64,000 nt of DNA from an uncultured bacterium (GTDB lineage Bacteria; Patescibacteriota; Minisyncoccia; Phycocordibacterales; GWA1-40-21): positions 83,524-147,523 of the forward strand of contig CAIKXE010000004.1 in assembly GCA_903831305.1 (NCBI GenBank). Direction: 5' to 3'. How positions within the stretch are numbered: the stretch's first letter is position 1; each line of letters starts with the position of its first letter. The position numbers and the translations under genes were made by a program. The notes beneath the pieces are model-generated. The model ran no database searches and was not told where the DNA came from. It saw only the letters and a program-made list of their open reading frames with translations. Shown piece by piece: positions 32,732 through 63,029 of the stretch.

Positions 32732-33856
32732 ATGAAAAAAATATACATATATTTAGGTTTAGTTGTTATTGTGCTTGCGGGGGCGGTTATGGTTTCTAGA
32801 AATCAAACCACACTTGGGCCGGTCAAGATCGGCGTTATCGGTCCAGTGACTGGTAGCTCCGCTGGGGTTTATTATGAGCCATTGAAAAAGGGGATTGATA
32901 TTGCTCTGGCGGGGATAAACAAGAGTGGTACTAAATTAGCGGTGGTGTATGAGGATGATCAGCTAGATGGTAAATTATCAGTTTCGGCCTATGCTAAATT
33001 AAAAGCAGAAGGTGTGCGGTACTTTATCCTAAACGGTAGTCCAGCGGCGGCCGCCGTCGCTCCACTGATCAAGGCTGATGGAAACGTGTCCATGGTGCCC
33101 TCAGCCCTCCTGACGGCTTACAAGGATGATAGCCCTCTGACTTGCCGTATTGCTCTGACCGCTGACAATTATGGTCCAGCTTTCACTGATTTGTTCTTAA
33201 ATAAATTAGATAAGAAGCAAATAGTCACCTTGGTTTCAAATACCGAGGGGGCGATGGCTATCTATAATGTATTCAAGGAAAAGTTTGAGGCCGCAGGCGG
33301 GCAGATAGTCCAGGCGGAAACCTTTGGCAAGGATGACATTGATTTCCGTACCCAGATTACTAAAATCAAAGCTAATAAAAAAGCCGAAGCGATTGTGGTT
33401 ATAAACTGGTCAAGCACTATTGTACCTATGCTTACTCAGATAAAAGAACTTGGCCTGACCTTACCGATCTTTGGTGACACGGGGACAATCAAGAATGCGG
33501 CTATCAAGGATTTGACTCTGGCTAACGGAATTACTTTCTTGGACTATTCTTTCACCACTGATGGTAACAATGTTTCAGGCATTGCTCAGAAATTTATCAG
33601 TGATTATGCTTCCTTAAATGGTGGAAGCAAGCCGAGTATCCAAGCCCTCCAAGGTCATGACTCTGTAAGTATCCTGGCTCATGCTCTTGCTCAGGCTGAT
33701 GCTAAGAACCCAACCAGTGTGGCAAACTATATTGTAAATAATATTAAGGATTATGAGCTGGCCGGTGGTAAATTCTCCTTCAACAGTACCTGTGAAGCTG
33801 ATAGAGATATTGCCGTCAGACAAGTGGTAAACGGGGAGATTGTAGATGTAAAATAA
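32732..33856 (+). CDS. ABC transporter substrate-binding protein, Leu/Ile/Val-binding family (SBP-2)
   Basis: VKIGVIGPVTGSSAGVYYE; paralog of SBP-1/3. Confidence 0.8.
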   Translation: MKKIYIYLGLVVIVLAGAVMVSRNQTTLGPVKIGVIGPVTGSSAGVYYEPLKKGIDIALAGINKSGTKLAVVYEDDQLDGKLSVSAYAKLKAEGVRYFILNGSPAAAAVAPLIKADGNVSMVPSALLTAYKDDSPLTCRIALTADNYGPAFTDLFLNKLDKKQIVTLVSNTEGAMAIYNVFKEKFEAAGGQIVQAETFGKDDIDFRTQITKIKANKKAEAIVVINWSSTIVPMLTQIKELGLTLPIFGDTGTIKNAAIKDLTLANGITFLDYSFTTDGNNVSGIAQKFISDYASLNGGSKPSIQALQGHDSVSILAHALAQADAKNPTSVANYIVNNIKDYELAGGKFSFNSTCEADRDIAVRQVVNGEIVDVK

Positions 33857-33878
33857 AGATTATTAATAATTAATCACC

Positions 33879-33908
33879 AAAATAGCCCTAAACCAGGGCT
33901 ATTTTGGT
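33879..33908 (+). terminator. hairpin aaaatagccct-aaacc-agggctatttt
   Basis: perfect 11-bp stem. Confidence 0.65.
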
Positions 33909-33922
33909 GTCAGAAAAAGTGC

Positions 33923-33951
33923 TTGACAAATAGTCCATACTATGCTAGTGT
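33923..33951 (+). promoter_or_regulatory. sigma70-like promoter TTGACA-17-TAGTGT for GC-rich two-gene island
   Basis: hexamers read directly; SD AGGGAG before ATG 34023. Confidence 0.45.
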
Positions 33952-34022
33952 TATAGGTAGATCGATCCACCGTAATTCGCGTCCCATATCGGGGTGCGAC
34001 GGGGATCAAGGGAGATATCGGG

Positions 34023-34394
34023 ATGAAGAAGATCATTGGTATGCTGGTGGCTGTCGCGGTCGTGGCGTTGTTTGCCACGGGGTGCGCGTCGCTCACTCGG
34101 GATCCGAACCGTGGGCGGGGCGTGGAGTATTCGGAGAAGATCCTCCGGCCGACGGGCGACGTCCCGAAGATCGGGACCGTGATCCACGTGATCGCGATTC
34201 TGAATCGGGAGGTGGAGTCTCAGGTCATCTGGACCGAGATGCCCACTGACTACGCCATGTTCCCGAAAGTTCGGGTCATGACGGTCAAGGGGTTTCGCGC
34301 CTGGTCGGAGGGTGTGGGTGACGAGAGAGACTCGTTGTGCATGGTCCAGTACGATAGTGAGACCAGCATACGCCTCATCCTCATGAAGGACTGA
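34023..34394 (+). CDS. lipoprotein (123 aa) in GC-rich island
   Basis: signal peptide plus lipobox LFATGC; GC3-rich codons. Confidence 0.5.
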   Translation: MKKIIGMLVAVAVVALFATGCASLTRDPNRGRGVEYSEKILRPTGDVPKIGTVIHVIAILNREVESQVIWTEMPTDYAMFPKVRVMTVKGFRAWSEGVGDERDSLCMVQYDSETSIRLILMKD

Positions 34395-34564
34395 CCACCC
34401 GAGTTTGTGGGTTAACTCTGACAACTCATATGGTCCTGAGGCGCCATTGTAAAAAGCCTCACTGTCTCACGATGTGTGTCGTGACTGATAAGTCCAAAAG
34501 GACGAAACAGAAAAGTTCTTTGAGAGGTAAGTAAGCGGGGTAAATCCCCAGAAAGAGAGAGACA

Positions 34565-35404
34565 ATGAATACGGAAACGAAGAATGGTCGGCCGGTGAAG
34601 GTTCATTTGGCCATGAGGGACGGTCCAGTTCCCAGGTCGATCAGGCAAGTTCTGCCGATCGTCGGGGATGAGGCCTCCCACACTTACGTGGAGGTCCAAG
34701 CCGAGGCAGACCTCGTCATCTTTGACGAGGTGCGGGAGATCGAACGGGGATACGACAAGGAGAAATCCTACGCGTTCCTGCAGATGCCCGGAGTGAAGGT
34801 TCCGCGTCTGCCGGATAACTGCGAGGTCATCAACCCCCTGCAGATCTTGCCGGGCTTGATCGGGTCCATCAGTAAGGCTCGTTTGAGACTTCCCCCGCCC
34901 GCCATGTCGGCCGTGGAAGAAGAGGAAGAGACGACTGTGTCTTTACTCCCCGACGCCCTGCGTATCCTCGTCATTGAGGATACGCCGCGGCACCAGGCGA
35001 GTGCTAAGCAAGGTCTGGCCGGACACCGACTCATGGTAGCCACGGGGTACGAGGAAGCGATGGAGGTTCTCGGCAACGAGAAGTTCGACGTCGTCCTCAC
35101 GGACCTGCAACTACCCATGTCCTCGCGCACGCTCGGTACCGAAGCGTTCAAGCTCGGTCAGCTGGTGCCTTATGGCCTCATGCTCATGATCGAGGCGGCG
35201 CACCAGGGGGCGAGACATGTGGCGGTCGTCACAGACATGAACCATCACGCGGACTGGCTATCGGCAGCATTCGATCACTTCCGCTACTCGGTGAAAATCG
35301 AGGGAGCGGTCGTGCAGATGATGCACGCGCCGATGAAGCGGGACGCGTCTGGTGAGTCCGTCAAGGACTGGGTCGCCGCCCTTGACCGGCTCCTGAAAGA
35401 GTAG
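34565..35404 (+). CDS. protein with C-terminal CheY-like receiver-type domain (279 aa), GC-rich island
   Basis: LRILVIEDT...DVVLTDLQLPM pattern resembles REC domain; no obvious output domain. Confidence 0.45.
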   Translation: MNTETKNGRPVKVHLAMRDGPVPRSIRQVLPIVGDEASHTYVEVQAEADLVIFDEVREIERGYDKEKSYAFLQMPGVKVPRLPDNCEVINPLQILPGLIGSISKARLRLPPPAMSAVEEEEETTVSLLPDALRILVIEDTPRHQASAKQGLAGHRLMVATGYEEAMEVLGNEKFDVVLTDLQLPMSSRTLGTEAFKLGQLVPYGLMLMIEAAHQGARHVAVVTDMNHHADWLSAAFDHFRYSVKIEGAVVQMMHAPMKRDASGESVKDWVAALDRLLKE

Positions 35405-35470
35405 CTCTTAACCTAAAGCGCGGATATAATCCGCCAAGTGACCTGACATGTTACAGACAACTGTCAACGG

Positions 35471-35505
35471 GCCCGGACTGCAACACGCAGTTCCGGGCCT
35501 TTAAA
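35471..35505 (+). terminator. hairpin ggcccggactgc...gcagttccgggcc plus T run
   Basis: read directly. Confidence 0.55.
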
Positions 35506-35582
35506 CTTGTCTGAATTTCAAAATAAGGTGTGGATTATAAATAAGCGGTCGCGTTCTTATATTCCACCCCTAAACAGGGTTT

Positions 35583-36482
35583 TTGTTTTGGAAAAATTTA
35601 AGGTATAATTTCTCCGTGGAATATTTAATACACCTTGCCATACTCTTTGCTATCTACGTGCCACTGGCGGTGTCACTAAATTTGGTGGTGGGGTATACTG
35701 GACTGCTCTCTGTCACTCACGCGGCCTTTTATGGTGTGGGGGCTTATGCCACTACTCTGCTTGTGGTAAATTTTGGTTGGGGCTTTATCCCGGCTTTGCT
35801 TGTGGCCATGATCCTCTCCGGCCTCCTGGCCACTCTCTTTGGCTTGATCCTCAGCCGTTTCCGAGATGATTATTATGCCTTGGTCTCTTTTGGTTTCAAC
35901 ATTATCGTTTACAGTATTTTATTAAACTGGGAGAGCTTGACCCGTGGCCCCCTAGGGATCCCTGGTATTCCTCGGCCAGAAATATTTGGTCTGACTTTTG
36001 ATTCAAATTTATCATTCTTGATTTTAGCCTTGGCTCTGGCTCTCACGGTCTACCTGGTTTCAGCGGGCATTGTAAAATCATCCCTTGGCCGAGTGCTCAA
36101 AGGGATAAGAGAAGATGAAAAGGTGCTCGCTATCTTTGGTTACAATACCGAGGTTTTCAAGCTGGTCATCTTTGGCCTGACCGCGATGATGGCGGGGCTC
36201 GCGGGTGGTCTCTTTGCTACTTATATTACTTTTATTGACCCTTCCACTTTTGGCCTGAATGAAAGTATTTTTATCCTGGCTATGATTATCCTGGGTGGTA
36301 TGGCTAATCTCCGGGGGTCCGTCATCGGCGCTCTGTTCCTAATCCTCCTGCCGGAAATTCTGCGTTTTGTGGGCTTCCCCTCAGACATCGCGGCCCAGAT
36401 GCGCCAAGTGGTGTATGGGGCTCTCTTGGTCTTGCTTATGTTATATCGTCCCCAAGGATTGCTAGGGGAGTATAAACTGTGA
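35583..36482 (+). CDS. livM: branched-chain amino acid ABC transporter permease (LivM-like)
   Basis: multi-TM permease; paralogous to LivH-like gene. Confidence 0.78.
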   Translation: MFWKNLRYNFSVEYLIHLAILFAIYVPLAVSLNLVVGYTGLLSVTHAAFYGVGAYATTLLVVNFGWGFIPALLVAMILSGLLATLFGLILSRFRDDYYALVSFGFNIIVYSILLNWESLTRGPLGIPGIPRPEIFGLTFDSNLSFLILALALALTVYLVSAGIVKSSLGRVLKGIREDEKVLAIFGYNTEVFKLVIFGLTAMMAGLAGGLFATYITFIDPSTFGLNESIFILAMIILGGMANLRGSVIGALFLILLPEILRFVGFPSDIAAQMRQVVYGALLVLLMLYRPQGLLGEYKL

Positions 36483-36526
36483 TATTCTTTAAATAGTAAT
36501 TTATTAATAATTCTTAAAAAAAACTC

Positions 36527-36697
36527 ATGAAAAAGTGGCTTTGGATTGCTCTGATTATCGTGGTGGTGGCTATTATCGGCGCGGGGATGAATAAGGGGAA
36601 GGATACTACAAATATCAAAGTAGGGGCTACCCTCTCTCTTACGGGCAGTTTAGCCTCAATTGGTAAATCAGAAATGATTGCTAGATTGGCAATTTAG
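36527..36697 (+). pseudogene. truncated substrate-binding protein remnant (56 codons: TM anchor + first beta-strand KVGATLSLTGSLASIG)
   Basis: aligns with N-termini of SBP-1/2/3 then stops. Confidence 0.5.
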
Positions 36698-36721
36698 TAA
36701 TTATGTTTGAATTTTATCAAG

Positions 36722-36752
36722 GCAAAAAATCCCTCCCAAACGGGGGATTTTT
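36722..36752 (+). terminator. hairpin aaaatccctccc-aaac-gggggatttt
   Basis: read directly. Confidence 0.55.
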
Positions 36753-36767
36753 TGCTATACTGTATAG

Positions 36768-37520
36768 GTGACTATATTGCGAACACAAAATATTCATAAA
36801 AACTTTGGTGGGGTGAAGGCGGTGGACGGAGTCTCTATTGCTTTCGAGCCGGGGAAAATCACGGGGTTGATAGGGCCGAATGGCTCCGGTAAGTCTACCC
36901 TGATAAACCTTTTGACCGGTATGACTGCCTTTGATAACGGCCTTATTTATATTGGGGAGCATACCCGGCTGGATCATATACACCCTTATGACTTGCCAGA
37001 CTTTGGCATCACCCGGACCTTTCAGGATATCCGCCTGTTTGAACAGATGCCGGTTTTAGATAATATCTTGATTGTGATTACTTCCCGGAATGTGCTCGGC
37101 GCCCTTTTTGAAAAGCATAAAAAGTATCATTTAGATATTGCGGAGAAGGTGCTCCGGCAAGTGGGCTTGTGGGAGAAGAGAGACTGTTTGGCTCATGATT
37201 TGTCATATGGGCAGAGAAAGCTTTTGGAGATTGCTCGGGTACTTGCCCTAAATGAAGATGGTGGTGAGGTGCTCCACACTATTTTATTTGACGAACCGTT
37301 TGCTGGCCTATTTCCGGAGATGATAAAGATCGTTTCAGAGACCCTGTGCCTCCTGCGGTCTCAAGGCAAGACGGTGGTACTGGTGGAGCATAATATGGAT
37401 ATTATCCGGGAATTATCTGATCACGTTATCGTTCTGGATAGTGGCCAGGTGATAGCCGAGGGGACACCGGCCCACGCCCTCTCTCAGGCGAGCGTCATCG
37501 AGGCGTATTTGGGAAAATAG
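36768..37520 (+). CDS. livG: branched-chain amino acid ABC transporter ATP-binding protein (LivG-like), GTG start
   Basis: Walker A GPNGSGKST, signature LSYGQRKLLEIA, Walker B ILFDEP. Confidence 0.85.
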   Translation: MTILRTQNIHKNFGGVKAVDGVSIAFEPGKITGLIGPNGSGKSTLINLLTGMTAFDNGLIYIGEHTRLDHIHPYDLPDFGITRTFQDIRLFEQMPVLDNILIVITSRNVLGALFEKHKKYHLDIAEKVLRQVGLWEKRDCLAHDLSYGQRKLLEIARVLALNEDGGEVLHTILFDEPFAGLFPEMIKIVSETLCLLRSQGKTVVLVEHNMDIIRELSDHVIVLDSGQVIAEGTPAHALSQASVIEAYLGK

Positions 37521-49647: not shown

Positions 49648-50202
49648 ATGAAAACAGAAAATATTGAGATTTTGAAAAACGGCGGAGTGGGGGTGATGCC
49701 GACGGATACAGTGTACGGTATCGTCTGCAGTGCTTTTTCTAAGCCGGCGCTAGAAAGGCTTTTTAAAGTCAAAGGCCGGGATGAAAACAAACCACCGATT
49801 ATTCTCATAGCCGATATTTCTGATTTGGATAGGTTTGGAATCAGCATTTCTCCTACTCAGGTTGAGTTTATGGGAAAATATTGGCCAGGGAAGGTAACGA
49901 TTATCTTTACTGTACCAGAAAACTTTTCTTATTTAGACAAGGGTTTGGGTCTGGCTATCCGGCTACCGGCCGATGAGAGTTTGAGAGAAATCTTAAGGCA
50001 GACCGGACCACTGGCTACTACTAGTGCTAATTTTCAGGGTCAAACCACAGCTAAAAATATTAATGAGGCGAAGAAGTGTTTTGCTGATAATGTGGATTTT
50101 TATGAAGATGGTGGTGAGCTAGAATCCCTACCTTCTACCTTAGTAAAAATAAGTGGTGACAAAGTAGAAATCCTACGCCAGGGAGCGGTTGTTATTTCTT
50201 AA
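49648..50202 (+). CDS. tsaC: L-threonylcarbamoyladenylate synthase TsaC/YrdC
   Basis: VMPTDTVYGIVCSAF ... Sua5/YrdC fold. Confidence 0.8.
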   Translation: MKTENIEILKNGGVGVMPTDTVYGIVCSAFSKPALERLFKVKGRDENKPPIILIADISDLDRFGISISPTQVEFMGKYWPGKVTIIFTVPENFSYLDKGLGLAIRLPADESLREILRQTGPLATTSANFQGQTTAKNINEAKKCFADNVDFYEDGGELESLPSTLVKISGDKVEILRQGAVVIS

Positions 50203-51130
50203 ATATCTTGTTATATTGTTGATAAACAATCTTATGAAAAAAGGTTTTACCCACACCCTAAATTTTAAAAGAAAGTTAGTATGTGGGTTTACATTACTCG
50301 AAATCCTCCTCGTCGTCGGCATCATCGCTGTCCTGGCCGGCATTGTTATTTTAGCTATTAATCCTACGAAACAGTTCTCCAATATCCGTAATACTCAAAG
50401 AAAGATGAATCTAGCGGAAATCAACAAAGCCTTATACCAATACTATATAGATAATAGCGGTTATCCTTCCACTCTCACCACCACCTTAACCGAAATATGT
50501 AACACCGGTACTGGTACTACTACCCACAGTGTAGTCTGTACTGGACTTATCGACCTCTCGGCTCTCGTCCCCACTTATTTAGTAGCTATCCCCGCTGATC
50601 CCCAAGCTACCTCTACCAATGCTTTATATAAGGTGATGAAGGGTACCAATAATAAACCCTATGTCAGTGCAGCTTCAGCTGAGCTTGGGGTAACGGTTGA
50701 GTTGGGGACGGCACCACCGGCTGTGGTTCCTTGTGGTGACCCTACTAGTGAGGCTTGTTGGTCGACGATTGCTAGTAGTAAAGCTTGGGGACCATCTGGT
50801 GTAACTACTGGTGCCCAAAGTAATACTGACGGATCGGCAAATACAGTAATCTTGGCCGGTTTAGCTGGTAGTTATCCGGCAGCGGAATATTGTGACGCTC
50901 TGTCAGAAGGAGGTTATACTGATTGGTATTTACCAGCTAAGGATCAGTTATTTTCTGGTCGTGTAGCTCTCGGTTTGTCTGGTTTCCCGAGTGGTGTTTA
51001 TTATTGGTCATCTACTGAGAATCAAAACTATCCAGGTGACGGCGCTTGGTTCCTGGATACCGACTACGGTGGCAGCATGGGCGACTACTACGATAAGATC
51101 AATCAGTTCTCCATTCGTTGTCTTCGCTAG
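50189..51130 (+). CDS. type IV pilin-like protein with C-terminal DUF1566 (Lcl-like) domain
   Basis: prepilin motif G-FTLLEILLVVGIIAVLAGI; C-terminal YTDWYLPAKDQL...YYWSSTE...RCLR. Confidence 0.65.
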   Translation: MLFLKYLVILLINNLMKKGFTHTLNFKRKLVCGFTLLEILLVVGIIAVLAGIVILAINPTKQFSNIRNTQRKMNLAEINKALYQYYIDNSGYPSTLTTTLTEICNTGTGTTTHSVVCTGLIDLSALVPTYLVAIPADPQATSTNALYKVMKGTNNKPYVSAASAELGVTVELGTAPPAVVPCGDPTSEACWSTIASSKAWGPSGVTTGAQSNTDGSANTVILAGLAGSYPAAEYCDALSEGGYTDWYLPAKDQLFSGRVALGLSGFPSGVYYWSSTENQNYPGDGAWFLDTDYGGSMGDYYDKINQFSIRCLR

Positions 51131-51865: not shown

Positions 51866-52645
51866 TTGTTAATGGCCGTAACTGTTAAAAATAAAGAGGA
51901 AATAGAAGCTTTGCGAGAAGGGGGTAAGAGATTAGCCTTTATTTTGGCTGAAGTGGCTCGGGCGGTAAAGCCTGGTGTTTCTACTTTGGATCTAGATAAT
52001 TTAGCTCGGAAGCTGGTAGAAGAGGGGGGTGATAAAAGTGCTTTTCTAAATTATAAACCGGCCGGTATGAAGAGGCCTTATCCGGCGACTATTTGTGTAT
52101 CAGTGAACGATGCGATTGTCCACGGTATTCCTAACGAGAATCCTCTGATTATAAAAGAAGGTGACATAGTTTCCTTGGATATGGGACTAAATCATAAGGG
52201 ACTTTTTACGGACGCGGCGGTGACAGTGGGGGTAGGAACAGTGGATCAGGCAGGTCAAAATTTGATTGACGCTACTCGCCTGGCTCTATATGAGGGAATA
52301 AATGTCATAAAACCAGGTAAACATATCAGAGATATTAGCTATGCGATTGAAAAATATGTCCGACCAAAGCATTTGGGGATTGTGGAGGAACTCTGCGGGC
52401 ACGGCGTGGGTTATAAAGTCCACGAGGATCCATTTATTCCAAATTTTTGTTTGGAAGAGAAAGGAGAAAAATTAAAAGAGGGCATGGTCCTGGCCCTGGA
52501 GCCAATGCTAAATGAGGGGAGTCGGCATATCAAGCTTGATGCGGATGGCTATACTTATAGGACACAGGATGGTAAGCGTAGCGCACATTTTGAACACACG
52601 GTCGTCGTCACCCATGATGGGGTGGAAATATTGACTCAGGAATAA
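51866..52645 (+). CDS. map: type I methionine aminopeptidase
   Basis: metal ligands in ...VHGIP..., D..D, H, E, E pattern. Confidence 0.88.
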   Translation: MLMAVTVKNKEEIEALREGGKRLAFILAEVARAVKPGVSTLDLDNLARKLVEEGGDKSAFLNYKPAGMKRPYPATICVSVNDAIVHGIPNENPLIIKEGDIVSLDMGLNHKGLFTDAAVTVGVGTVDQAGQNLIDATRLALYEGINVIKPGKHIRDISYAIEKYVRPKHLGIVEELCGHGVGYKVHEDPFIPNFCLEEKGEKLKEGMVLALEPMLNEGSRHIKLDADGYTYRTQDGKRSAHFEHTVVVTHDGVEILTQE

Positions 52646-52740
52646 TTATTGTCACCAAGTAAGCCATGGCTTACTTTACAATATAGGAGTTTTCAATATG
52701 TATCTGTGCTATTATAGTAAGCATAATTTTATTTAGTATT

Positions 52741-54681
52741 ATGAAAAGAAACCACGGTTTTACATTACTTGAAATCCTCCTCGTCGTCGGTCTCATCGCT
52801 ATCCTCGCTGGTATCGTGATTCTTGCCCTAAATCCCACCAAGATGTTCTCCCAAGTCCGTAATGCTCAGCGTAAGGCTAATCTGACAGAAATCAATAAAG
52901 CCGTCTACCAATATTATATTGATAACTCCCGTTATCCCGCCACCTTAACCTCCATCGCCACTGAGATCTGTAATACCGGGGCTACTTCTACTGGTCATAG
53001 TATAAGCTGTACTGGTTTGATTGACCTCTCAGCTCTCGTCCCTACTTATATGGTCGCCATCCCCACTGACCCCAGTGGGGCCATAAATACCGGTGGAGCC
53101 GGTTATAAAATAGCTAGTGACCCTATTGGTAAACCGTACCTTCAAGCCTCTCGCGCGGAACTCTCGGTCAGTATTTACATTGGTAATAGCACTGGAGTTC
53201 TAGGTACAAACTGGGATATGCCTGGAAGCTGGACTACACCTACTACAACCGGTAATCTCCGTTACTGGGTGGCCTCCTCGGCTGGCTCTTGGAATGATAC
53301 CGCTAACTGGTCTACTACCTCTGGTGGAGCGGGTGGCTCCTCGGTCCCCGGTTCTACCGAGGATGCCTACTTTGATGGTAGTGGAAATGGAGCTTGTACC
53401 ATAAATGCCACCGTCAATGTTAAAGGTCTAATCCTAGAAGGCTATTCCGGCACTATCACTCAAGGCTCCTATGCTGTGACGGTGGGGACTGATGGTTACT
53501 CTCAAGCCTCGGGGACCTTTACTGGTTCAGGTGCTGGCTCAGCGGTTACTGTAAATGGTATCTATAAATTGGCGGGAGGGGTGTTTACAGGGACAAGTGG
53601 GACGTTAACCGTGGCTGGTAATTTTACTAAAACGAATGGGACGTTTGCGCATAATAGCGGGACGACAAAAATGACTGGCTACGGGAGTACCTTTACTAGT
53701 GGTGGTACTACCTTTGGTAGTCTTACTTTTTATTCAACTGCCTATACCGCAAATCCATATGTCCTAGCCGACGATTTTGTTGTAGCAGGAGATTTAACAA
53801 TATCTTCAGCCGCATATGGATGGGTTACAGCCATATCTCCTCGCACAATTACCCTTCAAAGTAATTTTTATCAAACAACATCTTTTAATAGTGCACTTGG
53901 TGGTTTTGATACGAGTAATATAACTCTTATTATGACAGGAAGCGGAAAGACTTTTACTCTCTCATCCGGACAATTCAAAGCTAACTTAAGTTTACAAGGT
54001 GCAACTACATTAGCTTACTCAGCATATTTACCTAATTATTCTGGGACTCTCACTATTGATGCAAGTGTGGGTCTTGGCGCGGCATTAAATTGTGGTTCAT
54101 TAGTCATAAATTCCGGTAAGACCCTCACCACAAACAACTATGATGTTACCATTAGCGGCTCCTTAATTAATAGTGGCACGTTTACTTTGGGAACAAGTAA
54201 TGTAACATTAAGAAATGCATACAATTCAATAGTAACTCATACAACTGGTGGTATTGCCTTTAATAATCTGACACTTGGTGGAGCGAGTATAACTGGATCT
54301 CAAATATTAGCGGATAATTTTACAGTAGCTGGGACTTTGACGATCGGCGACGTCTCCTGGCTAAATACGGTTACTGCCACTTCTACTCGAACGATTACTC
54401 TTCAGGGTAATTTTGTTCAGACATTGCTTTCTAATAGTAACCTCGGCGGTTTTGATACAAGTAACATTACTCTTAATATGACAGGAAGCGGAAAGACTAT
54501 TAATTTTACTCAGGGTAAATTTAAGGCTAATTTAAATATTGCTAATTCTGCCTCAATTTCTTTGGTTAATAATTTAGTTGTTACTAGTGCCACGACTACT
54601 ATAAATGCCGGTGGTACATTAAACAAAATGGGCTATACCTTGACCGGGACTTTAGTAAATAATGGTACTCTAATACCTTAA
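52741..54681 (+). CDS. large type IV pilin-like protein (646 aa) with Thr/Gly/Ser-rich internally repeated C-terminal region
   Basis: prepilin motif G-FTLLEILLVVGLIAILAGI; N-terminal 140 aa paralogous to 50189 ORF; tandem ~180-aa repeats. Confidence 0.65.
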   Translation: MKRNHGFTLLEILLVVGLIAILAGIVILALNPTKMFSQVRNAQRKANLTEINKAVYQYYIDNSRYPATLTSIATEICNTGATSTGHSISCTGLIDLSALVPTYMVAIPTDPSGAINTGGAGYKIASDPIGKPYLQASRAELSVSIYIGNSTGVLGTNWDMPGSWTTPTTTGNLRYWVASSAGSWNDTANWSTTSGGAGGSSVPGSTEDAYFDGSGNGACTINATVNVKGLILEGYSGTITQGSYAVTVGTDGYSQASGTFTGSGAGSAVTVNGIYKLAGGVFTGTSGTLTVAGNFTKTNGTFAHNSGTTKMTGYGSTFTSGGTTFGSLTFYSTAYTANPYVLADDFVVAGDLTISSAAYGWVTAISPRTITLQSNFYQTTSFNSALGGFDTSNITLIMTGSGKTFTLSSGQFKANLSLQGATTLAYSAYLPNYSGTLTIDASVGLGAALNCGSLVINSGKTLTTNNYDVTISGSLINSGTFTLGTSNVTLRNAYNSIVTHTTGGIAFNNLTLGGASITGSQILADNFTVAGTLTIGDVSWLNTVTATSTRTITLQGNFVQTLLSNSNLGGFDTSNITLNMTGSGKTINFTQGKFKANLNIANSASISLVNNLVVTSATTTINAGGTLNKMGYTLTGTLVNNGTLIP

Positions 54682-54771
54682 TTTCGGACAAGGCCTCGCC
54701 TTGTCATAATTACTTTTGGTGAATTTTGATAATAAATTATTTTTTATTCTTTTTATGATATAATTATCTCA

Positions 54772-57591
54772 ATGGAAAATGGACTACAAAAAATAGAGCA
54801 AAAGTTTTCTTCTCCACAGGAGGAGCTAAATTATTTACGTGAGCAAGTGGCTCGGCAGGAAAAAGTCCTGATAGAGAAAGGGGAGAGTGTGCCTAGAGAA
54901 GACATCATCACCGATAAAATAATTGATTATAAAAATACTAGGCCCGAGGAGGCTTTACAGCCAGACTATCAGTTGAAAACGGCGGAGGTGGAGGCGATTG
55001 TTTTGGATCTGTCGCCGGAGGAGCACGATGCTAAGATGGAAGAGATGGTTACTATTTTACAGCACAAGGGCTTGATGAATGCTTTGTCTGTGGTGGAGAG
55101 TTTAAAGGACGCACATCTAGATGATGATTTCCACCGTTTTTTAATCCAATATATCAAGGCTGGTCTGCCACTTGGGGCGGTGAAGGAGAGTAGCCCATTT
55201 TTTAAGGCTCTTAAAATGACTTTATATGAAGTAGCTTTGCCACAAGCTGAGGAGGAAGAAAAAGGCAAGCAGAAAAATTTGAAAGAGCTTATTTCTAAAA
55301 TGGAACAGTTTTACGCTGGTATGCTTTCAGTCTCCGCAGAAAAGGCGGGCCCAGATTATCTGACGATAGAGCTTGCTAACGCTAACAAGAGTGCGGAGTT
55401 TATTTTTTATGTTTCTGTTTCGGATGCTAAAAAGGAGTTATTTGAAAAACAAATCATGTCTATTTTCCCTGAGGCTAGGATCCTGGAGAAAAAAGATGAT
55501 TATAATATTTTCAATGAGCAAGGGGTGTCAGTGGGCTCTTATGCCAAGCAGGAGAAAAACCATATCTTCCCATTAAAAACCTATGATAAGTTTGATTATG
55601 ACCCACTCAATGTTATTTTAAACAGTTTTTCAAAAATTGACCGTGATGGTGAAGGAGCCAGCATCCAGATAGTTTTTAAGCCAGTGGGGGAAAAATATGT
55701 GAGTTTTTATAAAACCGCTTTGAAGGACTTTTCCAAGGGGATGAAGCTTAAAGAAGCGATAGATATGGACCGCTTCTCCTTTTTTGGCGAGACCAAGAAA
55801 ATATTTAAAGAGATTACTGATAGCTTTGTGGAAGGAAAAAAAGAAAAAGAAAAGGAAAAAGGTTTGGCTGATCAAAAGACCTTGGATATGGATAAAAACG
55901 TGCTGGAAAACTTAAATGGCAAGATCAGCACACCCACGGTGGAGACAAATATCCGAATTATTGCATCATCCCGCACAGAGGCTGAAGCTCTGTCCATCCT
56001 ATCTGATCTGGAGTCCGCTTTTAATCAGTTTGAAAATACGGGTAGTAATAAACTGTCCTTTAAACGTCCGGAAGGTAAGGACCTCAGACAGTTTTTCCGT
56101 GAGTTTTCCTTCCGGGTTTTTATGGCTAGCCAAAAGATGCCCTTAAATATCAGGGAAATAACCAGTATGATGCATTTACCGGAGAATGAAATCTTGGGGA
56201 CCTCACAACTCAAGCAGAGTAAGGCCGGTAGTGCGCAAGCTCCGCTTGACCTACAGAAGAACGGTATTTCCCTTGGTAAAAATATTCACCGTAATGTGGA
56301 GACGGACATTTATATGTCACCGGAAGACCGTCTCCGTCACTTATATATCATTGGACAGACGGGTACTGGTAAAACTACTTTATTAAAGCAGATGATTAGA
56401 CAGGATATTTTAAATGGTGATGGTGTTTGTATGATTGATCCGCATGGTTCAGATATTCAGGATGTCTTATCATATGTGCCGAAAGAGCGCCTGGAGGACT
56501 TGGTTTACTTTGATCCATCCTACACCGCTCGGCCGATGGGCCTAAATATGCTGGAATATGATATTCGTTTCCCGGAGCAAAAGACTTTTGTGGTAAATGA
56601 AATGCTTTCCATCTTTAATAAACTCTTTGACATGAAGGTAGCTGGTGGCCCGATGTTTGAGCAGTATTTTAGAAATTCCGTGATGCTGGTATTGGAAGAT
56701 CCAGAGAGTGGTAATACTTTGCTTGACGTTTCTCGGGTTTTGTCCAACAAGCAGTTTAGGGATTTGAAGATTTCCAAATGTAAGAATCCGCTCGTTATAC
56801 AATTTTGGAAGGAGATAGCGGAGAAAGCCGGCGGAGAAGCCTCTTTGGCTAATATTGTGCCTTATATTGTCAGTAAGTTTGATGTCTTTTTGCAGAATGA
56901 TATTATGCGACCAATCATTGCTCAAGAAAAATCCTCTTTTAATTTCCGTGAGATAATGGATCAGAAGAAAATCCTTCTGGTGAACTTGTCCAAGGGACGC
57001 CTAGGGGATATCAATGCCAATTTGATTGGTCTGATCATTGTAGGTAAAATCCTGATGGCGGCTTTATCACGGGTGGATTCTCTTGGTAAGGACTTAGCAC
57101 CATTTTACTTATATATTGATGAATTCCAAAATATTACCACGGATTCTATCTCTACTATTTTCTCGGAGGCCAGAAAGTACAAATTATCACTTACTGTTGC
57201 CCATCAATTTATTGCTCAGCTGGAAGAGGATATTCGGGATTCCGTTTTTGGAAACGTGGGATCCATTGCTTCTTTCCGGGTTAGTTCGGAGGATGCTGAA
57301 TATTTGGAAAAGCAGTTTGCGCCGACTTTCTCCGCCAAGGATTTGATGAGTATAGATAATTTGAATTGTTATATGAAGATGCTTGCTTCTGGCCGGCCGG
57401 TCAAGCCATTTAATTTGTTTATCCCCTTTCCACCACGTGGGGATAATGCCTTGATTGACAAAGTAAAGGAACTTTCCTATCTTAAATATGGTCGGGATCG
57501 TGAATTAGTGGAGTCAGAAATAATGAAGAAGTATGAGAAAAAGCCACTTGAGGAGGCGCCGCCAGTCCCGGTTAGCCCATTTAAGATTTAA
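54772..57591 (+). CDS. large P-loop NTPase (939 aa): novel N-terminal ~480 aa + C-terminal TraD/VirD4/HerA-FtsK-like ATPase domain
   Basis: Walker A IIGQTGTGKTTLL, IDPHG, Walker B YLYIDEFQN, HQ sensor; no TM segments seen. Confidence 0.55.
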   Translation: MENGLQKIEQKFSSPQEELNYLREQVARQEKVLIEKGESVPREDIITDKIIDYKNTRPEEALQPDYQLKTAEVEAIVLDLSPEEHDAKMEEMVTILQHKGLMNALSVVESLKDAHLDDDFHRFLIQYIKAGLPLGAVKESSPFFKALKMTLYEVALPQAEEEEKGKQKNLKELISKMEQFYAGMLSVSAEKAGPDYLTIELANANKSAEFIFYVSVSDAKKELFEKQIMSIFPEARILEKKDDYNIFNEQGVSVGSYAKQEKNHIFPLKTYDKFDYDPLNVILNSFSKIDRDGEGASIQIVFKPVGEKYVSFYKTALKDFSKGMKLKEAIDMDRFSFFGETKKIFKEITDSFVEGKKEKEKEKGLADQKTLDMDKNVLENLNGKISTPTVETNIRIIASSRTEAEALSILSDLESAFNQFENTGSNKLSFKRPEGKDLRQFFREFSFRVFMASQKMPLNIREITSMMHLPENEILGTSQLKQSKAGSAQAPLDLQKNGISLGKNIHRNVETDIYMSPEDRLRHLYIIGQTGTGKTTLLKQMIRQDILNGDGVCMIDPHGSDIQDVLSYVPKERLEDLVYFDPSYTARPMGLNMLEYDIRFPEQKTFVVNEMLSIFNKLFDMKVAGGPMFEQYFRNSVMLVLEDPESGNTLLDVSRVLSNKQFRDLKISKCKNPLVIQFWKEIAEKAGGEASLANIVPYIVSKFDVFLQNDIMRPIIAQEKSSFNFREIMDQKKILLVNLSKGRLGDINANLIGLIIVGKILMAALSRVDSLGKDLAPFYLYIDEFQNITTDSISTIFSEARKYKLSLTVAHQFIAQLEEDIRDSVFGNVGSIASFRVSSEDAEYLEKQFAPTFSAKDLMSIDNLNCYMKMLASGRPVKPFNLFIPFPPRGDNALIDKVKELSYLKYGRDRELVESEIMKKYEKKPLEEAPPVPVSPFKI

Positions 57592-57674
57592 TAGTGCATC
57601 AGCAGGAAATATTTAATTTTAAAAGTCCTCCAGACATTTTAAAATTAAACATTTCTTGTTGATGAGAAAATAAC

Positions 57675-58271
57675 ATGCAAAACGAAAAAACCTTTGTCAT
57701 TATCAAGCCGGATGGAGTCCAACGTACTTTGATTGGGGAGATCATCAGACGTTACGAGCGGATGGGCTTAAAAATGGTTGCCTTAAAGATGCTCGTGCCG
57801 ACAGCAGAGATGGCTGAGAGACATTACACCTTGGATCCAGAGTGGCTCCGCAAGGTGGGGGAGAAGTCAATCGCTAGTTATAAAGCTAAAAATATTCCAG
57901 CTCCCTCTGATGATCCGATTACCTTGGGGAAAAAAGTTTTAACTCGTTTAGTTAAGTTTGTGACTTCTGGTCCGGTGGTGGCCATGGTCTGGCAAGGGGC
58001 GCACGCTGTGGGAATAGTCCGAAAGATGACTGGTGGCACAGAGCCCTTAAGCTCAGATATTGGTACAATCCGGGGTGACTTTGTGCTGGACTCTTATCAG
58101 ATTGCTGATGTCTCAGATCGAGCTATTCGTAATCTGGTCCACGCTTCCGGTTCGGTAGCGGAGGCCGAGAATGAAATAAAGCTTTGGTTCAAACCGGAGG
58201 AAATACTGAATTATAGGCTTATCCAGGACGCTATCCTTTACGATGTAAATTTAGATGGTATATTAGAGTAA
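57675..58271 (+). CDS. ndk: nucleoside diphosphate kinase (long form)
   Basis: TFVIIKPDGVQR, catalytic His in NLVHASG. Confidence 0.88.
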   Translation: MQNEKTFVIIKPDGVQRTLIGEIIRRYERMGLKMVALKMLVPTAEMAERHYTLDPEWLRKVGEKSIASYKAKNIPAPSDDPITLGKKVLTRLVKFVTSGPVVAMVWQGAHAVGIVRKMTGGTEPLSSDIGTIRGDFVLDSYQIADVSDRAIRNLVHASGSVAEAENEIKLWFKPEEILNYRLIQDAILYDVNLDGILE

Positions 58272-61624: not shown

Positions 61625-61794
61625 GACCCTTACAGGGTCAGTACCCGTGTTTGGATTTTTTATTCTCCTTCGAAAGACTCAGGATCTAAAAAATCTCAAA
61701 CAGGCTTCGCTTCCGCCCCGTAAGCAAAATCATTTGCTTACTCATCTCCACATAACAAAAATCGCCCATCAGAATGAGCGGGTTTTTGTACATG

Positions 61795-62208
61795 TGGAGA
61801 TGGGCGGAATCGAACCGCCGTGCATAAGAGTATCCTAATTGCTTCTACAAAGTCTAGTTAATTTATCTTCACTTGCGTGAATTTAAGTCTGTGATTTCAA
61901 AAAGAACAAAATGATCACAAACCGATCCTCTAATTTCTTTCCGTACCGAGAAAATTACGGAATATAATCTAATTTTATGTCACCCAGACCAGTTTATTAG
62001 ATATGGACTGATTGGATGCCGCTTAGGTTTGTTTTATGAAACGTAAGCGAAAGCAAAGTTGTTGGCCGCAAAATATGGGGACACAACAGACTTTACTCTT
62101 GAAACAATGCTATTAGCAGTTGTTTGTTTATTAACATTTTAGGTGTGTATAATAATGCACCACTTTGCGCAATCAAGGACAGATCAGATGTCTAGGCCGA
62201 TCATCCCC
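61795..62208 (-). ncRNA. ssrA: tmRNA (ssrA), ~414 nt
   Basis: 5' GGGGATG pairs with 3' CATCTCC-A; 3' T arm GGCGG-TTCGATT-CCGCC; smpB 0.4 kb away. Confidence 0.6.
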
Positions 62209-62301
62209 CTAAAACATTTTATCGGATAAAATGTTCGGGCGACCAATTTTAGGAAAAATTGGTTTAGCCCAAAAACATTATCTTTAAAATATCTAGTCAT
62301 A

Positions 62302-62574
62302 TTATAAAGTATGACCTATTTTATTTATATATTCATTTAGAATTTTTCTTTTCTCTCTAGCACCCCAGAGACTTTTTAAAAATCTTTCTTTGTTAAACGC
62401 AGCAGTTTTGCTTGGGGCTTCTTCTAAATGAATTCTTACTAAAGGACGTCTATTTTTCGTGGTAAGTACTTTTCCAGAATTATGTTCTTCTAGTCTTTGG
62501 TCTGGATTTTGTGTACATCCAACATATAGGCGATTATCTTTTTTGCTTAGTAAAATATAAACAAAATAGGGCAT
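62302..62574 (-). CDS. GIY-YIG nuclease family protein (90 aa, YhbQ-like)
   Basis: FVYIL...LYVGCT...R..EHN motif set. Confidence 0.75.
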   Translation of the reverse strand: MPYFVYILLSKKDNRLYVGCTQNPDQRLEEHNSGKVLTTKNRRPLVRIHLEEAPSKTAAFNKERFLKSLWGAREKRKILNEYINKIGHTL

Positions 62575-62579
62575 ACTTA

Positions 62580-63029
62580 TTATTCATTTTTCAAAGTGCG
62601 GCGTATATCACGATCTGTCTCGCGTTTCTTGATAGTCTCGCGTTTATCAAAGCTCTTTTTACCCTTGGCAATACCGAGTTCTAGCTTGAGCTTTCTACCT
62701 GTATTATACACCGCTATAGCCACAATTGTCAAGCCTTTCTTGTTTTCAATCTCAGTCAGCTGTTTGATCTCTTTTTTGGTCAATAAAATCTTTCGATTTC
62801 GGAGAGGGTCGTAATCAGCAGGAGTATTAGTGGCCTGATAGGCGGGGATATTGGCGCCAATGAGGAAGGCTTCTCCACCGCGGACCGTGACATAAGCGCC
62901 ATCGAGCTGACCCTTTTTCCCCCGCACACTCTTTACCTCCAAGCCTAAAAGCTCTAGCCCGGCGGTAAATTTGTCCGTGATTTCATAGTTAAAGTATGCT
63001 TTTTTATTTTGTAGTAAACTTTCACTCAT
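62580..63029 (-). CDS. smpB: SsrA-binding protein SmpB
   Basis: KAYFNYEI..., C-terminal basic tail; canonical SmpB. Confidence 0.92.
   Translation of the reverse strand: MSESLLQNKKAYFNYEITDKFTAGLELLGLEVKSVRGKKGQLDGAYVTVRGGEAFLIGANIPAYQATNTPADYDPLRNRKILLTKKEIKQLTEIENKKGLTIVAIAVYNTGRKLKLELGIAKGKKSFDKRETIKKRETDRDIRRTLKNE

Follow-up and report, generated by a model that had tools for sequence, protein, structure and literature searches.

The gene at positions 54772-57591 of a 64,000-nucleotide stretch of DNA from an uncultured patescibacterium (assembly GCA_903831305.1, contig CAIKXE010000004.1, positions 83,524 to 147,523 of the forward strand; the whole stretch is called the window below) probably codes for a cytoplasmic motor ATPase that forms rings and falls within the VirB4/VirD4 branch of the FtsK-HerA superfamily, and not for a motor associated with pili. 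The 939-amino-acid (aa) protein consists of three modules: a helical module (N1), a second module (N2) with a predicted fold similar to the N-terminal domain of VirB4, and a RecA-like motor.

A large part of bacterial diversity belongs to the Patescibacteria, which subsist on material from host cells. Their type IV secretion system (T4SS) is essential in the one genetically tractable species, and no dedicated coupling ATPase is encoded nearby. The phylum carries about two unexplained coupling-protein-like ATPases per genome, a class that is here given an anatomy. The class had already been counted and DUF8128, the domain that forms N2, had been catalogued; what is new is the VirB4-like build, the split into a membrane-anchored and a soluble form, the fusion with N1 and the conserved gene order.

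Module organisation and conserved motifs

The open reading frame (ORF) is complete and an identical protein was found on nine public contigs. The modules and motifs are as follows, with helices taken from AlphaFold2 (AF2) models and disorder judged by the predicted local distance difference test (pLDDT).

54772-57591, forward strand: complete ORF with an ATG start, 939 aa and a stop, encoding the three-module soluble ATPase (N1, N2, motor)
54772-55191, forward strand: N1, acidic and all-helical, residues 1 to about 140; AF2 helices H15-H129
55192-56196, forward strand: N2, DUF8128, repeated beta-alpha-beta units, residues about 141-475
55774-55890, forward strand: Lys/Glu-rich disordered insertion in N2 that includes KEKEKEK, residues 335-373, pLDDT below 50
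56266-57441, forward strand: RecA-like motor of the VirD4/VirB4/HerA-FtsK group, residues about 499-890, from Pfam, NCBIfam, PADLOC and Foldseek
56353-56376, forward strand: Walker A GQTGTGKT, residues 528-535
56578-56922, forward strand: all-helical insertion between the two Walker motifs, residues about 603-717; AF2 helices H603-H717
57106-57123, forward strand: Walker B YLYIDE, residues 779-784
57202-57207, forward strand: HQ, residues 811-812, a putative sensor
Residues about 891-939: C-terminus, with two terminal helices and a disordered tail

An IDPHG motif lies at residues 555-559 and the KEKEKEK run occupies residues 357-363. In an alignment of 50 homologues the mean column identity is 74% and remains high along the whole length. 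G528-K534, D783, E784 and Q812 are kept without exception and H811 in at least 90% of the sequences; residues 335-373 have no majority residue in the consensus. N1 carries the conserved motif F-x-S/T-P-E-E-E-L-x-Y/F-L-R towards its N-terminus and ...KG-L-x-x-A-L-x-V-V-x-x-L-x-D-x-H-L-D-D-x-F-H-R-F-L towards its C-terminus, and N2 terminates with LN-x-x-E-(I/L)-T-S-x-x-H-(L/F)-P. Judged by its position, the helical insertion at about 603-717 may be equivalent to the all-alpha domain of TrwB-type coupling proteins. Hydropathy revealed no membrane anchor in the 939-aa protein and no hydrophobic helix in its first 60 aa. The sole strongly hydrophobic 19-aa stretch, residues 747-765 (Kyte-Doolittle 1.97), is the conserved helix of the ATPase core just N-terminal to Walker B.

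A VirB4-like fold in front of a coupling-protein-like motor

The full-length AF2 model was of medium quality (pLDDT 67), and a model of residues 1-490 made with a more diverse alignment reached a pLDDT of 80, with values above 90 across most of 170-330 and 380-470. When the N-terminal model was compared with the PDB using Foldseek, the top 14 matches were all to TrwK, the VirB4 of R388 (E from 1.2e-5 to 2e-3, with a probability of 0.99 or more). They were followed by unrelated oxidases at E > 0.02, and no HerA-type fold was found among the matches. Compared with viral models (BFVD), the same model matched Bacillus phage proteins at E of about 1e-15. The full-length model aligned with TrwK/VirB4 over about 930 columns at E 2.8e-9, whereas HerA (E 1.3e-5) and TrwB (E 2.7e-5; TM(target) 0.50-0.54) matched the C-terminal half only. 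VirB4 is thus a better end-to-end fit to the predicted structure than either TrwB or HerA.

The sequence libraries point to the same group of motors. The Pfam matches are short and just above threshold, with DUF87 (1.6e-6) and TrwB_AAD_bind (1.5e-5) aligning around the P-loop and TraG-D_C (1.7e-5) around Walker B. In NCBIfam the best matches are coupling-protein models, SXT_TraD at 7.6e-15 and the CD1115 VirD4-like model over residues 518-841, and in a PDB sequence search, including a profile search, the P-loop region of TrwB was the only significant match. N1 matched neither Pfam nor the PDB sequences. Pfam PF26449 (DUF8128), a domain of unknown function, is precomputed on the exact 939-aa protein without the 'weak' mark; as it is also present on shorter relatives that have no N1, the domain lies on N2. 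In PHROGs, phrog_5156, of unknown function, matched residues 148-920 at 1.6e-85, so most of the N-terminal half accompanies the motor in phages too.

Against the curated models for type IV coupling proteins (T4CPs) the protein scored 54.4 bits for a cut-off of 366 (TIGR03743), 14.7 for 521 (TIGR02759) and 26.6 for 250 (NF045973), and PF02534 (T4SS-DNA_transf), which matches homologues, did not match the 939-aa protein. For VirB4, TIGR00929 gave E 0.0025 over 23 residues of the P-loop only, and neither PF03135 (CagE_TrbE_VirB) nor PF12846 (AAA_10) matched. Profile comparisons of the family with hhalign were weak or partial: the P-loop only against a Bacillus AAA_10 VirB4, E 5e-5 over 119 columns against the VirB4 protein TrsE of pGO1, E 3e-3 over 301 columns against its T4CP, TrsK, and nothing against TrsD. 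Because these comparisons are weak or partial and the curated scores lie far below their thresholds, we have not filed the ATPase as a member of VirB4 or VirD4 and describe it as a distinct branch of the VirB4/VirD4 group.

These results bear on a previous reading of the DNA, made from its letters and ORFs (the sequence-only reading). That reading had placed Walker A, IDPHG, Walker B and HQ in the C-terminal half, where we found all four, and a KEKEKEKG linker near residue 360, which corresponds to the run at 357-363; it had likened the C-terminal half to TraD/VirD4/TrwB and HerA/FtsK-type translocases, in agreement with the Pfam, NCBIfam and TrwB and HerA structure matches. An assignment to ABC or AAA+ proteins, named there as the outcome that would speak against it, did not occur in the domain searches. 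The view that the N-terminal half resembles nothing known did not hold, as N2 is DUF8128 with a fold like the VirB4 N-terminal domain and N1 is homologous to a separate small protein described below.

A large family with relatives on plasmids and phages

We found about 1,470 homologues. The best 120 are almost all 912-945 aa long and 63-100% identical; the named ones among them come from Parcubacteria, Pacebacteria, Taylorbacteria or Patescibacteria, and all carry precomputed PF26449. The family is carried by at least 598 species-representative genomes, and the named records among the matches listed are all patescibacterial. A search of the N-terminal half against 1.8 billion representatives returned 1,019 cluster-representative relatives. 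The family is therefore large, and the named close relatives that we found are all patescibacterial.

Outside the phylum, tblastn identified proteins of about 20-25% identity over N2 and the motor in Bacillus phages and in 582 plasmid records, chiefly from Bacillus, Streptomyces and haloarchaea. One of these is WP_121549396.1, an 886-aa 'DUF87 domain-containing protein' on the 24.7-kb Bacillus subtilis plasmid NZ_CP032854.1, which aligns with residues 195-887 at E 3e-36. It lacks a membrane helix. Its gene is followed directly by that of a Replic_Relax relaxase and comes first in an operon that also encodes a TcpE protein and a canonical AAA_10 VirB4. This homologue holds the coupling-protein position of a Gram-positive conjugation module, and the family therefore has either a conjugative ancestry or a conjugative counterpart.

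Anchored short forms, soluble long forms and the N1 fusion

A sister form of about 800 aa is also patescibacterial (Portnoybacteria, Parcubacteria, Pacebacteria), and its match to the N-terminal half begins at residue about 146. A strongly hydrophobic N-terminal helix is present in 114 of 119 short forms, compared with none of 119 long forms. The latter count agrees with the hydropathy of the window protein and with the sequence-only reading, which had seen no transmembrane anchor.

To the 85 long-form loci described below we added a context sample of 80 further loci from metagenomes for the short form. In these the short-form ATPase gene often adjoins an upstream ORF of 115-180 aa without a membrane segment. 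A hidden Markov model made from the N1 of long forms only recovered 17 stand-alone ORFs of 115-180 aa (lowest E 1.4e-18); most lie directly upstream of the ATPase gene. Using jackhmmer the number of N1-like ORFs rose to 35, with 32 directly upstream of a short-form gene and 30 of those genes encoding a transmembrane-anchored protein. The gaps between the N1-like ORF and the ATPase gene are mostly -3 to 30 bp. The alignment of N1 with the small ORFs is full-length and includes the motif ...KG-x-x-x-A-x-x-V-A-x-x-x-x-x-P-x-L-L-D-x-F-H-D-x-L; direct BLAST of two of the small upstream proteins against N1 gave E 0.05, which is suggestive only. Since N1 stands alone upstream in short-form loci and the anchor occurs only in the short form, the window protein is a fusion of a small soluble N1 partner to the N2-motor protein in which the membrane helix has been lost. 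The fusion identifies the N1-like proteins as putative functional partners of the whole family.

Several further gene families were observed beside the ATPase. Some genomes carry two membrane-anchored paralogues in tandem, as seen for the DUF8128 ATPases at L125:242-6143 (831 and 955 aa) and L133:5944-11561 (829 and 961 aa). Small DUF5663 proteins of about 100 aa recur beside family members, often immediately before the N1-like ORF (L004:11572-11862, L094:4925-5233, and also in L095, L097 and L105), and may be a further partner. In 11 short-form loci (L101, L106, L111, L114, L120, L130, L134, L137, L143, L164 and L166) the upstream slot is filled by a different family of about 160-210 aa, with the motif ...W-L-x-x-(I/L)-P-G-(V/I)-N-(R/K)-(F/Y)-F-L-E-Q-E-A-K-I-K and no Pfam match, and in 10 loci an unannotated family of about 200 aa lies directly downstream. 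A conserved run 5' of two short-form genes (L086:4604-7964 and L087:4510-7993) encodes a small transmembrane protein whose C-terminal domain contains Cys, an FtsQ-like POTRA protein, a 10-transmembrane GT-C/PMT_2-like glycosyltransferase and an acidic N1-like protein.

A conserved chromosomal position

The window is ordinary chromosome, with tRNAs, tmRNA with SmpB, PolA, PBP1, a Mur ligase, Adk, Map, Ndk, L20 and IF3. The neighbours of the ATPase gene are Map, a pilin-like gene and Ndk. The order found most often in 85 long-form loci is L15-SecY-Adk-Map-[gene]-Ndk-(DUF2238)-beta-CASP RNase; Ndk lies downstream in 42 of them, Map upstream in 30, and Adk and SecY occur in 27 and 21. The slot between Map and Ndk holds either the long or the short form, and the two therefore appear to share an ancestral position. 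Such a stable chromosomal address argues for a core cellular role over one in mobile DNA. A minority context has RsmH-FtsL-PBP-MurF upstream of the ATPase and YqeY, RmuC and RecR downstream. The tail of the spc operon, SecY-Adk-Map, is usually followed by infA-rpmJ-rpsM-rpsK-rpsD-rpoA-rplQ. In the window (51866-58271) and in many relatives Adk-Map continues into the ATPase and Ndk, with SecY seen in the loci of relatives, so the alpha operon must lie elsewhere.

No relaxase or mating-pair-formation gene was found near the window gene or in the neighbour families that recur across 165 related loci, in which singleton ORFs were left unannotated, and the same holds for VirB3, VirB6, VirB8 and TrsD in the window and in those families. 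The other large ORFs of the window encode PBP1, PolA, PilB, MCRA, a MurC-like protein and G6PD, with no canonical VirB4 among them. In a tblastn search of the window with the protein only the gene itself matched, revealing no second copy.

Three features were read from the sequence between the pilin-like gene and the ATPase.

54682-54771, forward strand: 90-bp spacer from the pilin-like gene to the ATPase
54687-54705, forward strand: GC-rich hairpin GACAAGGC-CTC-GCCTTGTC after the pilin-like gene
54756-54764, forward strand: extended -10-like site TGATATAAT, ending 8 nt 5' of the ATG

No Shine-Dalgarno sequence was seen upstream of the ATG in the 54756-54771 region. With a -10-like site 8 nt before the ATG and no Shine-Dalgarno, the ATPase mRNA may be leaderless. 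A consensus promoter and terminator scan called neither the hairpin nor the -10-like site, so that a separate, possibly leaderless transcript is a weak hint.

Proposed mechanism and alternative explanations

We propose that the C-terminal RecA-like domain would assemble as a hexamer and hydrolyse ATP through K534, D783/E784 and Q812. Hydrolysis would drive a polymer, most likely nucleic acid and possibly unfolded protein, through or towards a conduit in the membrane. N2 would sit on the motor in the same way as the N-terminal domain of VirB4 and form a membrane-proximal docking collar. In the sister form of about 800 aa, N2 would be tethered to the membrane by its single N-terminal helix; in the window protein N1 is the fused copy of the small soluble partner that sister lineages encode separately upstream. 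As the fusion replaced the membrane helix in this lineage, the long form must reach its site of action via contacts made by N1 or N2. The leading candidate for the machine that this motor serves is the patescibacterial T4SS encoded elsewhere, with which it may cooperate, the main alternatives being a DNA pump linked to division and an importer of host nucleic acid. If host nucleic acid or T4SS substrates turn out to be its cargo, the motor would be a key component of epibiotic life.

A DNA pump like FtsK, acting in chromosome segregation or cell division, would fit the housekeeping-like, near-universal conservation of the family and the recurrent second context with RsmH-FtsL-PBP-MurF upstream and RmuC and RecR downstream. 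The short forms also recur near FtsQ-like POTRA proteins and the DNA polymerase III delta-prime subunit, and like FtsK they combine a membrane anchor with a motor. However, the long form is unanchored, the neighbourhoods with division genes are a minority of loci, and FtsK_SpoIIIE (PF01580) scored 20.6 bits, below its cut-off of 24, over residues 492-542 only, with no gamma domain detected. An ftsK gene is moreover annotated in the saccharibacterium TM7x (PMC10768705), so at least some Candidate Phyla Radiation (CPR) bacteria have a canonical FtsK. We regard this explanation as unlikely.

The import of nucleic acid from the host is a more speculative extension of the proposed motor. A 2026 preprint (10.64898/2026.06.21.733656) describes a cultivated member of Patescibacteria that lives on imported host RNA, leaves the uptake mechanism unresolved and reports that the phylum has no identifiable nucleotide transporters. 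On this basis the family could be the missing cytoplasmic motor for the uptake of host nucleic acid: near-universal, derived from a T4SS, importing like the archaeal Ced system, feeding nucleotide salvage by the frequently neighbouring Adk (upstream) and Ndk (downstream), and representing a surviving intermediate between VirB4 and VirD4, with the N-terminal domain of the one and a motor like that of T4CPs. As a whole this combination is unlikely.

A role in defence or repair, as a helicase or translocase like HerA, was suggested by PADLOC, in which mad8 matched at 2.6e-13 and HerA models down to 2.3e-6, and by the HerA structures among the fold matches. The genes around the window ATPase are Map and Ndk, and include no NurA, Sir2, DUF4297 or other mad gene, nor any other nuclease; fixed gene order and near-universality are also unlike defence islands, and the N-terminus is like that of VirB4, without a HerA-type fold among its matches. 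We judge a HerA-like role very unlikely, and the defence reading of the mad8 and HerA matches was rejected, since they come without supporting context.

The sequence-only reading had favoured a pilus- or DNA-uptake-associated motor, because of the adjacent pilins, or else a remnant of a conjugation or competence system. A motor that works with the neighbouring cargo-bearing pilins has in its favour that the gene for a 646-aa pilin-like protein precedes the ATPase on the same strand, 90 bp away, and that a PilB-type ATPase is encoded elsewhere in the window. Type IV pilus motors belong, however, to the T2SSE/PilB family, which is unrelated to the VirD4/VirB4 class, and no ORF with a pilin N-terminal motif lies within three genes of the ATPase in any of 83 related long-form loci. 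In 14 long-form loci Map directly abuts the ATPase, and in a relative 81% identical to the window protein there is no gene between them. Other genomes have, in the variable slot, acidic coiled-coil proteins of 157, 582 or 1,019 aa, which are unrelated and have no pilin N-terminus. The absence of pilins from the 83 loci and the direct contact of Map and ATPase in the 81% relative indicate that the 646-aa gene is a lineage-specific insertion. The link between the ATPase and the pilins can thus be set aside as a false lead, and a pilus or competence motor is highly improbable. The remnant of a conjugation or competence system suggested by the sequence-only reading does not fit a gene with intact, invariant catalytic motifs in a fixed chromosomal position. 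Least probable of all is that the gene is what is left of a decaying prophage or integrated conjugative element. Homologues are present on plasmids of Bacillus, Streptomyces and haloarchaea and among Bacillus phages (including phrog_5156), but the gene has the same G+C as its flanks, no integrase, relaxase or repeat context, an intact frame, intact and invariant catalytic motifs, 64-88% identity over 920 aa and the same chromosomal position across many species.

Other features of the window

The window contains two pilin-like genes, at 50189-51130 (313 aa, with an Lcl_C-like C-terminus) and at 52741-54681 (the 646-aa protein, which carries a Thr/Gly/Ser-rich repetitive cargo). Their N-terminal pilin modules of about 130 aa are nearly identical. 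A G+C-rich island at 32732-37520 reaches 0.546 at 34001-36000, compared with about 0.40 elsewhere, and encodes a branched-chain amino-acid ABC transporter set with Peripla_BP_6, a response-regulator-like ORF, BPD_transp_2 and ABC_tran. It may have been acquired horizontally by this CPR genome. A cluster on the minus strand (61792-63029) comprises tmRNA (61792-62208), a GIY-YIG protein (62302-62574) and SmpB (62580-63029).

Comparison with known systems

Patescibacteria have their own VirB4 clade, with TrsD, VirB3, VirB6 and VirB2 as neighbours (Quinonero-Coronel et al. 2025, PMC12102498). The same study counted 5,713 "T4CP homologues to VirD4" in 2,918 of 3,035 patescibacterial genomes, with 148 near virB4, and reported that the t4cp homologue of S. 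epibionticum is not essential and that exaptation "cannot be ruled out". The window gene is probably one of these orphan T4CP homologues, which it resembles in phylum, abundance and separation from virB4, and the tandem anchored paralogues agree with the number of T4CP homologues reported for Patescibacteria, roughly two per genome. The study counts the orphans without giving their domain build, the VirB4-like N-terminal domain, the two forms, the N1 fusion or the gene order. A 2025 review (PMC12857230) describes the patescibacterial T4SS and not the detached T4CP homologues, and our literature search on Patescibacteria together with DUF87 found nothing.

Compared with HerA and FtsK, the window protein belongs to the same superfamily of ring ATPases, has a DUF87 match and finds HerA structures among its fold matches. 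It differs in that no HerA-type N-terminal fold was recovered and in lacking a NurA partner, the FtsK gamma domain and a multi-pass membrane domain. The likeness to T4CPs (VirD4/TraD/TrwB) lies in the spacing of Walker A and IDPxG, in the helical insertion between the Walker motifs and in the best-scoring sequence families. In contrast to T4CPs, the window protein has no N-terminal transmembrane domain, and its sister form has one helix where T4CPs usually have two; it also carries a VirB4-like N-terminal domain that T4CPs lack, and has no relaxase or T4SS genes nearby.

The proteins from outside the phylum, namely the 886-aa Bacillus plasmid protein, phage G gp156, D6E ORF23 and phrog_5156, share N2 and the motor and likewise have no membrane helix; the plasmid and phage proteins lack N1 and are about 20-23% identical to the window protein. 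VirB4 itself (TrwK of R388; PDB 7o42, 7o41 and 8rtd) is alike in that an N-terminal alpha/beta domain of about 350-400 aa precedes a TrwB-like RecA motor. The window protein differs from VirB4 in lacking VirB3, VirB6 and VirB8 neighbours and membership at the level of sequence, and in bearing the additional N1 module in front of this shared architecture.

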